Under the pieces are notes generated by a model that did no database searches, was not told where the DNA came from, and saw only the letters and a list, made by a program, of their open reading frames with translations. Both the position numbers and the translations under genes were made by a program. From a virus (taxonomy: Duplodnaviria; Heunggongvirae; Uroviricota; Caudoviricetes), in the IMG/VR virus record IMGVR_UViG_3300032167_005013: a DNA stretch of 64,000 nucleotides; one strand, written 5' to 3'. Shown here piece after piece: positions 32,180 to 42,603 of the stretch; the stretch's first letter is position 1; each line of letters starts with the position of its first letter.

Positions 32180-32187
32180 TATAAATA
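32180..32187 (-). promoter_or_regulatory. TATTTATA candidate late promoter heading the baseplate operon
   Basis: 18 nt upstream of the gp25-like ATG 32161. Confidence 0.7.
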
Positions 32188-35779: not shown

Positions 35780-35896
35780 TTACTCCCCCTCATTATCTAA
35801 ACCAGAAAAAAATTCCTCAAAATCCTCTCCATCCCAAAAAAAGAAATCGTCATCAATTTCATCATCAAACCATGTTTCATCAAAATCCCTTTCCAT
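35780..35896 (-). CDS. 38-aa acidic/aromatic microprotein
   Basis: Hand translation MERDFDETWFDDEIDDDFFFWDGEDFEEFFSGLDNEGE; ATG start, TAA stop 4 nt before the exonuclease start; below the track length cutoff. Confidence 0.6.
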   Translation of the reverse strand: MERDFDETWFDDEIDDDFFFWDGEDFEEFFSGLDNEGE

Positions 35897-41016: not shown

Positions 41017-41116
41017 TTCAATAAAATATTTTTAAAAAATTATTATAATCGTTTCTAAATGTAAAGATAGGTAAAAAAACGTTAAAAACAAAACGTTTTT
41101 AATAAAAATTTTCGGT

Positions 41117-41138
41117 CATCAGGGATATATCCCTGATG
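41117..41138 (-). terminator. Intrinsic terminator after bS21
   Basis: Perfect palindrome CATCAGGGATATATCCCTGATG followed by a T-rich tract on the minus strand. Confidence 0.85.
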
Positions 41139-41160: not shown

Positions 41161-41355
41161 CTAATTTTCGTGGTCAAGTTTATACTTGTTGGCATAAATT
41201 GCCTTCTTCATCTTTGTTCTGTGTTCGACAGAAGGCTTAACATATTCCTTCCTTTCTCTAAGTTGTTTAATTAATTTTGTCTGTTGTTCCTTTCTTTTGA
41301 ATTTTTTGAGGGCTTTCTCTATTGTATCCCCCTCATTAACCTTAACAATAAGCAT
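41161..41355 (-). CDS. rpsU: Phage-encoded 30S ribosomal protein bS21
   Basis: MLIVKV.EG..IEKALKKFKRK...LRERKEYVKPSV matches the S21 signature, Bacteroidota-like. Confidence 0.92.
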   Translation of the reverse strand: MLIVKVNEGDTIEKALKKFKRKEQQTKLIKQLRERKEYVKPSVEHRTKMKKAIYANKYKLDHEN

Positions 41356-41364
41356 TAATATAAT

Positions 41365-41369
41365 CTCCT
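41365..41369 (-). promoter_or_regulatory. Shine-Dalgarno site of the bS21 gene
   Basis: Minus strand AATAGGAG-ATTATATTA-ATG: AGGAG, 9-nt spacer. Confidence 0.7.
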
Positions 41370-41374
41370 ATTCT

Positions 41375-42184
41375 TTAAAAATCAAAAATATTCTTAAGAC
41401 TGTTTAATTCAGCCATATCATCAAAAGATTTAGCGATTTCATTCCAATCCGATATACCATCAACATCGGCTTTTGTTATCTGATATTTAGGATTATCCTC
41501 GCCATTATTGTCATCTTCAACACTATAATTCTCAGGAGCCACATTCTGCCAATAGTTTTCAATTGACTGATTAAATGGGGCTGATTTCTGTTGACGAAGA
41601 CTCATCTTCTCTTCAGCATTTGGGGCGCGACGTTCAATCTCCTGTTTAAGGGATTCAATGCCCTGATTATTTGCTTCAACCTTATCTTGAAATTGAAGTA
41701 TGAGGTTTTTCAGGTCTTTCAGTTCGTCAGAAACCCTTCCAACACCTTTAGCAGTCTCTTTCTGATAACCCGTAAGAGCATCTATGTCAATGACCTCGTC
41801 GCCATCTTCCATATCTTCAATATCCTCATCTTCCTCCGGTTCTTCAGTAGAAACATCTTCACCGCCCTGAGGATTCAGACCTTCAACACCCTGTTCGCCT
41901 TCAGCACCACCCATTTCAGGAGTCTCAGCACCTGTCTGTGGAGCAGGAGCATTTCCCATTGGACTTGTTGATGCAGCATCAGCCATATCCATACCGCCCA
42001 TCGGGTCATTTCCACCCTCAGCACCGCCCATTGCAGGGTCAGCAGGGGCTGCAGGGGCGGCACCGGCCATAGGGTCCTCAGTAGGGTCCGCCTCAGTGAT
42101 TCTTGTTGGAGCAATTGCCTGTGTATACTCCATTATTCGATTAAATCTATCTCTATAATCCGCTTCAGTCAATATCTTAGCCAT
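41375..42184 (-). CDS. Acidic, low-complexity protein with coiled coil (269 aa), possibly scaffold/internal head protein
   Basis: P/A/G/E-rich disordered N-half, heptad C-half. Confidence 0.65.
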   Translation of the reverse strand: MAKILTEADYRDRFNRIMEYTQAIAPTRITEADPTEDPMAGAAPAAPADPAMGGAEGGNDPMGGMDMADAASTSPMGNAPAPQTGAETPEMGGAEGEQGVEGLNPQGGEDVSTEEPEEDEDIEDMEDGDEVIDIDALTGYQKETAKGVGRVSDELKDLKNLILQFQDKVEANNQGIESLKQEIERRAPNAEEKMSLRQQKSAPFNQSIENYWQNVAPENYSVEDDNNGEDNPKYQITKADVDGISDWNEIAKSFDDMAELNSLKNIFDF

Positions 42185-42348
42185 TAGTCATTAAGTATTT
42201 GACGATTATCTTCAGTAAGAACCACTTTTGATGACTCTGTACGTTCAATGAGGCCATGGTTATTCCTAACCCTATTGATTCGGTTAGGGTCAATACCACT
42301 AAGAGCATTTACAAGTTCCTCAGCCTGTTTCAATTTATTCTCGTCCAT
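42184..42348 (-). CDS. Small hypothetical protein (54 aa, MDENK...LTEDNRQILND)
   Basis: ATG 42348 preferred over the track start; TAATG-coupled to the downstream gene. Confidence 0.6.
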   Translation of the reverse strand: MDENKLKQAEELVNALSGIDPNRINRVRNNHGLIERTESSKVVLTEDNRQILND

Positions 42349-42577
42349 CTTCTTCAACTTTTTCTTCTTTATCTTTGTCCACCTTTTCACTCTTTTTAGG
42401 TTTACGTTTAACCTCAACGGGAGTTTCAATAACAGTGGGTTCAATTTTTTCTACATTTATGTCATTTGTTATCACAACAGGTTCAATAACAGTAGGCTCA
42501 GCACTTCGTTTTACCATTATTCTACTGTCAAACCTATCTTGACGAACATTTCTTGCTTTTTTCGAAACATAAAGCAT
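42335..42577 (-). CDS. Small charged hypothetical protein (80 aa)
   Basis: ATG start 18 nt downstream of a TATTTATA motif; repeated (I/A)EPTVIE. Confidence 0.55.
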   Translation of the reverse strand: MLYVSKKARNVRQDRFDSRIMVKRSAEPTVIEPVVITNDINVEKIEPTVIETPVEVKRKPKKSEKVDKDKEEKVEEDGRE

Positions 42578-42595
42578 AACTGCACAATATTTTCA

Positions 42596-42603
42596 TATAA
42601 ATA
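42596..42603 (-). promoter_or_regulatory. TATTTATA candidate late promoter heading the bS21 operon
   Basis: 18 nt upstream of ATG 42577. Confidence 0.65.

Follow-up and report, generated by a model that had tools for sequence, protein, structure and literature searches.

Ribosomes specialised for a defined regulatory task are uncommon, and the bS21/anti-Shine-Dalgarno (ASD) loop of the Bacteroidia is among the clearest bacterial cases. In Flavobacterium johnsoniae, the 3' tail of the 16S rRNA is held by bS21 (Tyr54, Ile55), bS18 and bS6; Tyr54 of bS21 stacks on A1534 and Ile55 makes a van der Waals contact to the rRNA tail (PMC7797042). In vitro, F. johnsoniae ribosomes do not recognise Shine-Dalgarno sequences (SDs), against which such genomes also show selection (PMC7797042, PMC9976891). 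Ribosomes without bS21, without its C-terminus or with the Y54A substitution translate SD-led reporters better and SD-less ones somewhat less well, the gain on SD-led reporters amounting to 1.4- to 4-fold for bS21-lacking or Y54A ribosomes, and bS21 can leave mature ribosomes (PMC9976891). The bS21 gene, rpsU, is autoregulated via a 9-13-bp SD (PMC9976891, PMC13000453); the authors judged the extended SD necessary and speculated that this host autoregulation is a counter-defence against phage bS21 (PMC9976891).

Phage-encoded bS21 is the commonest viral ribosomal protein. It has been described from marine phages (Mizuno 2019, as cited in PMC9723584), Tyr54 in phage bS21 has already been published, and Chen et al. 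proposed phage bS21 as a means of turning ribosomes towards phage mRNA (PMC9723584). In the text of Chen 2022, neither an SD nor a ribosome-binding site is brought up for the phage bS21 gene (PMC9723584), and in the literature that we searched an SD on phage rpsU is not mentioned and a bS21-feedback wiring not described. The background on Flavobacterium bS21 and rpsU given in an earlier, sequence-only reading of the locus discussed here is in accord with the literature (PMC7797042, PMC9976891), and its claim of an undescribed regulatory wiring agrees with our search, which returned no paper describing a phage rpsU SD.

The phage bS21 gene and its transcription unit

The window, i.e. the whole stretch of 64,000 nt analysed here, is part of a viral record of 163,880 bp with 35% G+C and an estimated completeness of 46%. 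A protein search found the identical bS21 protein also on contigs of up to about 350 kb, and the same DNA is present in animal faeces and gut sequencing runs of several studies. We called 160 genes in the 163,880-bp record by simple codon scoring, with each start placed at the first ATG; the calls are crude and, owing to this choice of start, blind to SDs. The Bacteroidota -7 box TAnnTTTG lies ahead of 29 of the 160 starts in the forward sense vs 4 of 160 in the reverse sense. The phage, which has T4-like replication and baseplate genes, is about 350 kb in size, stems from animal-gut metagenomes and probably has a Bacteroidales bacterium as its host. Reading the host from a bS21 tree failed: the phage genes formed their own long-branched group within an unresolved comb, with the Tyr54 phage bS21 genes separate from the cellular ones and no donor resolved. 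No homologs of bS18 or bS6 were found in the 46% of the genome covered.

The bS21 assignment of the sequence-only reading was borne out by Pfam, in which the 64-aa protein matches Ribosomal_S21 (PF01165) at E 5.9e-14 with 52 bits against a cut-off of 27, its residues 4-56 covering profile positions 2-54 of 55. Over residues 1-59/60 it aligns without gaps (E 1e-11 to 1e-13) to the bS21 chains of Bacteroidota ribosomes with known structure, 7jil_z (F. johnsoniae) and 9i5v_9, and its KAIY falls on KAAY of 7jil_z, Tyr54 on Tyr54. Hence, the Tyr that had been read at position 54 (KAIY), confirmed both by counting and by this alignment, is equivalent to Tyr54 of F. johnsoniae. Tyr54 is invariant among 23 clade orthologs of 66-92% identity retrieved by protein search. 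Residue 55 is Ala in the window protein, Ala or Val in most relatives and Leu in one, while in cellular Bacteroidales bS21 it is mostly Val or Ile; the C-terminal tail of the phage protein is likewise unlike that of cellular Bacteroidales bS21. Judged by sequence, the gene product is a Bacteroidia-type bS21, a candidate for incorporation into host 30S subunits and for occlusion of the ASD there. Scanning metagenomes added no members to the clade; the matches were to bS21 of cells and of other phages.

The differing residue 55 (Ala/Val) and C-terminal tail, taken together with the contacts known from F. johnsoniae (PMC7797042), would suit a positive feed-forward, in which ribosomes carrying phage bS21 hold the 16S tail more loosely and read SD-led phage messages, including rpsU, in line with the redirection proposed by Chen et al. 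(PMC9723584). However, Tyr54 does not vary in the clade, there are hardly any further phage genes whose SD could be favoured, and the one other intergenic SD tested, that of a 509-aa gene (see below), is not conserved. We consider such a feed-forward improbable.

The bS21 gene is the last cistron of a unit composed of the following elements, listed in the order of transcription together with the promoter of the next gene:

42596..42603, minus strand: TATTTATA, a phage-type promoter word lying 26 nt upstream of the 80-aa gene; the unit probably starts here (kept in nine lineages)
42335..42577, minus strand: first cistron, 80 aa, no known family, syntenic in all relatives (ORF)
42184..42348, minus strand: second cistron, 54 aa, overlapping the first and fused to it in some relatives (ORF; 54-aa genes in relatives)
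41375..42184, minus strand: third cistron, 269 aa (ORF)
41365..41369, minus strand: SD core AGGAG (sequence, duplex energy, conservation in nine lineages)
41161..41355, minus strand: rpsU (bS21), 64 aa, Tyr54, last cistron of the unit (ORF, Pfam PF01165, alignment)
41117..41138, minus strand: perfect 10+10 hairpin, followed by a T run at about 41108-41104; the transcript probably ends here (sequence)
41062..41092, minus strand: Bacteroidota-type promoter of the next gene, coding for a gp32-like SSB: TTTG, 19 nt, TATCTTTA (sequence)

The unit consists of the promoter word, the 80-aa, 54-aa and 269-aa genes, bS21 and the hairpin, and is followed by the host-type gp32 promoter. None of the three cistrons upstream of bS21 has a match in Pfam, PHROGs or Atlas. 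The 269-aa protein, whose gene is always the direct upstream neighbour of bS21 in the clade, has an acidic low-complexity stretch rich in Pro/Ala/Gly/Met and a helical C-terminal half that ends in an invariant NIFDF/NIFGF.

The promoter word, already noticed at the start of the unit (42596) by the sequence-only reading, is real: TATTTATA is kept at the same distance in all nine lineages compared below and is oriented to starts, with 22 of 34 copies within 80 nt before a same-strand start vs 6 of 34 for the reverse complement. The form (C/A)TATTTATA lies in the coding sense 18-67 nt ahead of 24 genes (e.g. at window positions 32187, 56623, 10209 and 8452), and the relaxed word TATTTAT[A/C] gives 24 oriented copies before genes in the record. 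Among the genes preceded by the word are those for a baseplate wedge subunit and for a tape-measure-like protein of 958 aa; it also occurs before a 41%-identical homolog of the 509-aa gene on a 289-kb contig (L226). This word is probably the promoter that a phage sigma factor recognises, phage-specific and probably late, a timing that we infer. Since it is common to baseplate and tail genes, it fits late expression of the bS21 unit. In a separate observation, CTATTTATA precedes other genes.

The terminator previously placed at 41117 stands as a conserved hairpin with a T run, present at this place in all lineages and built from differing sequences with compensatory changes in 4 of 8 pairs. A simple terminator scan of the window did not call the hairpin at 41138-41117, because its T run begins 8 nt past the stem. 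Beyond it, relatives carry TATATTTG where the window has the promoter of the gp32-like SSB, gp32 being a Pfam match.

The upstream neighbours of bS21 are a 1713-aa amidase-bearing protein and four proteins without known family, the downstream ones gp32, thymidine kinase (TK), a RecA-like (PF00154) recombinase and a ligase; the capsid-module genes (terminase, portal, protease, major capsid protein) do not lie beside the window bS21. Between the RecA-like recombinase and the ligase, one relative has an inserted TnpB (OrfB_IS605/Cas12f-like; L031 9596-10759), and several relatives, though not the window, have DUF723/DUF4379 proteins of about 540 aa or split (L126 9342-10970, L128 9472-11100, L130 9219-10635, L040 3948-5489). 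The DUF723/DUF4379 occupants of the gap look like a mobile insertion. In a distant relative, an IS607-type resolvase and TnpB pair adjoins the homolog of the 509-aa gene (L226 697-2475).

A further candidate element lies within the unit. At 41383-41390 (minus strand), 14 nt upstream of the SD and within the last, NIFDF codons of the 269-aa gene, the sequence TATTTTTG matches the Bacteroidota -7 box. It is kept in most lineages, and in L130 a similar ATTTTTG reappears past the stop. The element might serve as an internal promoter of host type for a short SD-led bS21 message; it has no -33 TTTG at the right distance, and coding constraint accounts for most of its conservation.

The Shine-Dalgarno site in the genome and in the clade

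As described in the sequence-only reading, AGGAG precedes the bS21 ATG by 9 nt: it occupies 41369-41365 (minus strand) and is followed by the 9-nt spacer ATTATATTA and the ATG at 41355, motif and spacer lying inside the 19-nt gap between the stop of the upstream 269-aa gene and the bS21 start. To score SDs, we calculated the duplex of positions -22 to -3 with CACCUCCUUU (10-nt ASD probe). The bS21 leader reaches -7.3 kcal/mol and ranks 11th of 160. Genome-wide, 17.5% of the 160 starts score -3.5 kcal/mol or better vs 28% of random positions, while 12 genes (7.5%) score -7 kcal/mol or better vs 4.9% of random positions. The phage genome is SD-depleted, like Bacteroidia genomes (PMC9976891). The A/T-rich leaders that had been noticed elsewhere are in keeping with this, SD-like pairing being rarer at starts than at random positions. 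Among the exceptions that description had allowed, the site at 35896 is weak (-5.8), and 35793, the start adjoining in the gene call, scores -2.7. In the relatives checked, the ADP-ribosylglycohydrolase-family gene occupying the matching end of the block is without an SD.

How unusual is the site within its own genome? AGGAG at SD distance is found at 6 of 160 starts vs 2 of 160 mock windows, and with about five other genes of the record bearing AGGAG-type cores, rpsU is not unique. Most of the hits stronger than bS21 fall within the purine-rich coding end of the preceding gene, and among the high-scoring starts of the record the motif lies in a true intergenic gap only at bS21 and at one 509-aa gene, whose protein has no known family (G000 C1 151405-152934, equal to L132 5406-6935). 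Upstream of it stand CTATTTAT and TAGGAGA, the one SD in the record besides that of bS21 to be clearly intergenic. Homologs of 57% and 41% identity do not have this SD, and the idea of a phage 'SD regulon' was dropped for this reason. Folding of the bS21 leaders is no stronger than that of shuffled sequences (z 0.1 to 1.5), so that the SD is not hidden by structure, and a search of the leaders for a conserved hairpin masking the SD found none.

Since a lone AGGAG could be due to chance (about 5%), conservation was used as the test. From contig look-ups of bS21 orthologs we obtained syntenic loci and compared nine diverged lineages, among which third-codon identity is 0.40-0.68 (differences of 32-60%). 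They share the gene order amidase-bearing large protein, 199 aa, about 75 aa, 54 aa, about 270 aa, bS21, gp32-like SSB, thymidine kinase, RecA-like (PF00154) recombinase and ligase. In all nine, AGGAG lies 7-10 nt ahead of the bS21 ATG, seven lineages having ATAGGAGA, one GAGGAGA and one TAGGAGGAT, in which the SD overlaps the stop codon of the upstream gene. The spacer, the flanks and the distance to the upstream stop are all variable, bS21 starting 13-31 nt after that stop. Variants AGGAGG and GAGGAG occur around the invariant core GGAG, and SD strength spans 5-6 bp and -7.3 to -10.2 kcal/mol (10-nt ASD probe). In a comparison of seven orthologous starts, AGGAG was the sole G/C-containing 4- or 5-mer kept in all nine lineages within positions -25 to -1. 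At the other starts of these loci, 3 of 83 reach -7 kcal/mol, all of them inside coding sequence and none conserved, and no SD is kept at the other internal cistrons of the unit or the neighbouring genes in any of the nine lineages. One further relative, a 2.1-kb contig starting 27 nt upstream of the gene (L125), has an intact bS21 gene without SD. Conservation in nine of nine lineages despite their divergence, together with this exception, speaks for purifying selection within the clade with loss being possible. By this comparison, the phage bS21 SD is genuine, at working distance and selectively maintained, yet losable; conservation before orthologous rpsU genes, which the sequence-only reading had made a test of its proposal, is thus found throughout the syntenic set (L125 apart).

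We also considered that the conserved word might not act as an SD at all, but as an RNA processing site or as the site of a message-binding protein. T4 RegB cuts GGAG, and here GGAG is the invariant core in a phage with T4-like replication and baseplate genes. On the other hand, the distance of 7-10 nt to the ATG is kept while that to the upstream stop varies, and the AGGAGG and GAGGAG variants extend the complementarity to the ASD, both of which speak against such a site. A search for a RegB-like nuclease gave no match, with the controls equally silent. We hold this explanation to be very improbable.

Does the SD then simply enhance translation? A plain enhancer, or coupling to the upstream cistron, would be read by ribosomes that are not fully SD-blind and would involve no sensing of occupancy. 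The strength and spacing of the SD are ordinary, the gene lies 13-31 nt after the upstream stop, AGGAG cores also occur at a few further genes of the record, and rpsR, rpsB, rpsE and other ribosomal genes of the Bacteroidia have SDs of similarly moderate strength (PMC9976891), all of which would be accommodated by plain enhancement. It is less easily reconciled with the SD-blindness of F. johnsoniae ribosomes in vitro and the depletion of SDs both there (PMC7797042, PMC9976891) and here, nor does it fit with the lack of an SD at the other internal cistrons and neighbours in every lineage. We regard plain enhancement as rather unlikely.

Cellular and other phage bS21 genes

We took the 80 cellular bS21 genes closest to the phage protein, mainly from Bacteroidales genomes. 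Among these 80, the rpsU leaders are bimodal, with either no SD or one of about -16 kcal/mol, and none lies within the phage range. An extended, AAAGGAGGTGAT-like SD is present in 18 of the 80 (17 at -15.5 to -16.3 and one shorter at -11.8), namely in 17 Bacteroidales-labelled genes (Cryptobacteroides, ruminant and other gut MAGs) and in a Flavobacteriales MAG (L116). The 17 Bacteroidales rpsU genes (L046, L048, L051-L053, L055, L057, L061, L062, L064-L067, L096, L102-L104) carry AAAGGAGGTG, often followed by AT, about 25 nt before position 601, that of L103 being shorter, and their extended SD comes just after a TAnnTTTG box. The remaining cellular rpsU genes, of Prevotella, Bacteroides, Muribaculaceae and Phocaeicola, have no SD, and bS21 loci from metagenomes show the same split. 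In published surveys, no Bacteroidales meet the rpsU criterion and SDs stand before rpsR instead (PMC9976891, PMC13000457), with which our 18 of 80 relatives with an extended rpsU SD contrast.

As some Bacteroidales lineages have AAAGGAGGTGAT before rpsU, the phage SD could be a now functionless relic of gene capture from such a cell, or a product of chance, a score of -7 kcal/mol being reached at about 5% of random positions; the intact SD-less gene of L125 would agree with this. A relic or chance match would hardly persist, however, as AGGAG in nine of nine lineages at third-codon identities of 0.40-0.68 and amid indels and substitutions in the flanks, with no other G/C-containing upstream word kept in the block. 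We disfavour this explanation as highly improbable.

Is the SD a common feature of phage bS21 genes? A first viral scan returned mostly Arg54-type bS21 of other hosts; as these belong to other host types, they are uninformative on Bacteroidota. For the Tyr54-type, the following was found:

L223 24928-25128 (about 542.9 kb of LR756501, 735 kb): Tyr54 bS21 with AAAGGAGG 4 nt before the ATG
L154/L228: Tyr54-type phage lineage with the SD AAAGGAG
LR745206: Tyr54-type with a weak SD (-4.7)
LR756502 and LR756504: Tyr54-type without SD before bS21
About eight IMG/VR lineages: Tyr54-type with no match or a weak one only

LR756501.1 is an unrelated huge phage, and over 50 kb with 88 called genes its strongest SD is that of bS21; LR756502, LR756504 and LR745206 are its sister genomes. 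The majority of the other Tyr54-type phage lineages are without SD, and the expectation that an rpsU SD might mark bS21 phages in general was not upheld. As a side observation, LR756501 has a run of about ten small paralogous genes (L223 34100-38200 and 41900-42500, minus strand) that end in a purine-rich word (GGAGAGGAG, GGAGG) before the next ATG and so mimic SDs.

Ribosome occupancy as a candidate signal and comparison with known systems

The conserved SD suggests that the phage bS21 may be made in response to the number of bS21-lacking host ribosomes. An SD that is under selection in an SD-blind system would most simply be read by ribosomes with a free ASD, and the known population of this kind is the one that lacks bS21. 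We therefore tentatively prefer feedback via bS21-free ribosomes as the function of the SD, to which our analysis lends somewhat less than an even chance. In the Bacteroidia, the 16S 3' tail would lie in the pocket of bS21, bS18 and bS6, making fully loaded ribosomes SD-blind and leaving bS21-less ones able to read SDs. Synthesis of phage bS21 would then rise with the amount of bS21-free 30S subunits, which may be newly made or may have lost their loosely bound bS21 after host rpsU expression has stopped, and would fall once ribosomes are replete. Through such demand-coupled negative feedback, the ribosomes would stay able to translate the phage messages that have no SD. In its wiring it would resemble the host rpsU autoregulation, but as the SD is much shorter, it is probably weaker or differently tuned.

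Feedback is our best reading on account of the bS21 identity with Tyr54, the SD-poor genome, the oriented TAnnTTTG boxes, the AGGAG in nine of nine lineages, the unstructured leader, the SDs of LR756501 and a third lineage, and the biochemistry of bS21-lacking and Y54A ribosomes (PMC9976891). The main objections are the SD of 5-6 bp, the SD-less majority of phage bS21 genes, L125, the AGGAG cores elsewhere in the record and Ala/Val at residue 55. The more specific claim that bS21-free ribosomes preferentially translate phage rpsU, whereby the phage would measure and top up occupancy late, in at least three lineages and with short SDs, appears possible but doubtful. Of the interpretation put forward by the sequence-only reading, the bS21 type, the SD-poor genome, the clade-conserved SD and the late-type unit were retained, while the absence of the SD from most other phage lineages with Tyr54 bS21 and its short length weaken it. 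Its notion of a hijack of the host switch may not apply literally, because Bacteroidales are reported to be without an rpsU SD (PMC13000457).

If feedback holds, a virus would have connected a ribosomal protein of its own to the ribosome-heterogeneity circuit of its host. That the phage copy bears a conserved SD, though its genome and host group otherwise shun SDs, joins the field of specialised ribosomes with that of phage bS21, and turns the vague statement that phage bS21 redirects ribosomes into a concrete test feasible in F. johnsoniae. Being lineage-specific and much weaker than the host switch, the wiring would not be the general reason for phage bS21.

How does the locus compare with known systems? 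With the late-expressed bS21 of freshwater Bacteroidetes phages (Chen 2022, PMC9723584) it shares the aromatic residue 54, a probable placement with late or structural genes and the same proposed role, i.e. entry into host ribosomes. Unlike those phages, the present clade comprises roughly 350-kb animal-gut phage, and the window bS21 borders a probably late unit and replication genes, whereas that of Chen 2022 lies inside the capsid module. LR756501 likewise combines a Tyr54 bS21 with an SD (AAAGGAGG) and an SD-poor genome, but its protein is 48% identical, its SD stronger and its spacer shorter (4 nt). Bacteroidales rpsR and a few other ribosomal genes have SDs of about -7 to -14 kcal/mol in the same host order (PMC9976891, PMC13000457); the product of rpsR is a different protein, bS18, which like bS21 forms part of the ASD pocket.

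The closest likeness is to the rpsU autoregulation of F. johnsoniae and other Bacteroidia (Jha 2021, PMC7797042; McNutt 2023, PMC9976891; Naeem 2026, PMC13000453), with which the phage locus has in common the bS21 family, Tyr54, an SD before rpsU that is conserved among orthologs and an SD-avoiding genome. It differs in that the gene is carried by a phage and not by the chromosome, in its SD of 5-6 bp vs 9-13 bp, and in a helix of -7.3 to -10.2 kcal/mol, short of the extended helix (stronger than about -13 kcal/mol) of the Bacteroidia. Moreover, the phage rpsU is an internal operon cistron, whereas the cellular relatives have a host-type promoter box just upstream of rpsU, and the probable host order of the phage is reported to be without an rpsU SD (PMC13000457). 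As far as sequence comparison can tell, the feature is a phage-borne, short-SD and lineage-specific variant of this known regulatory theme.
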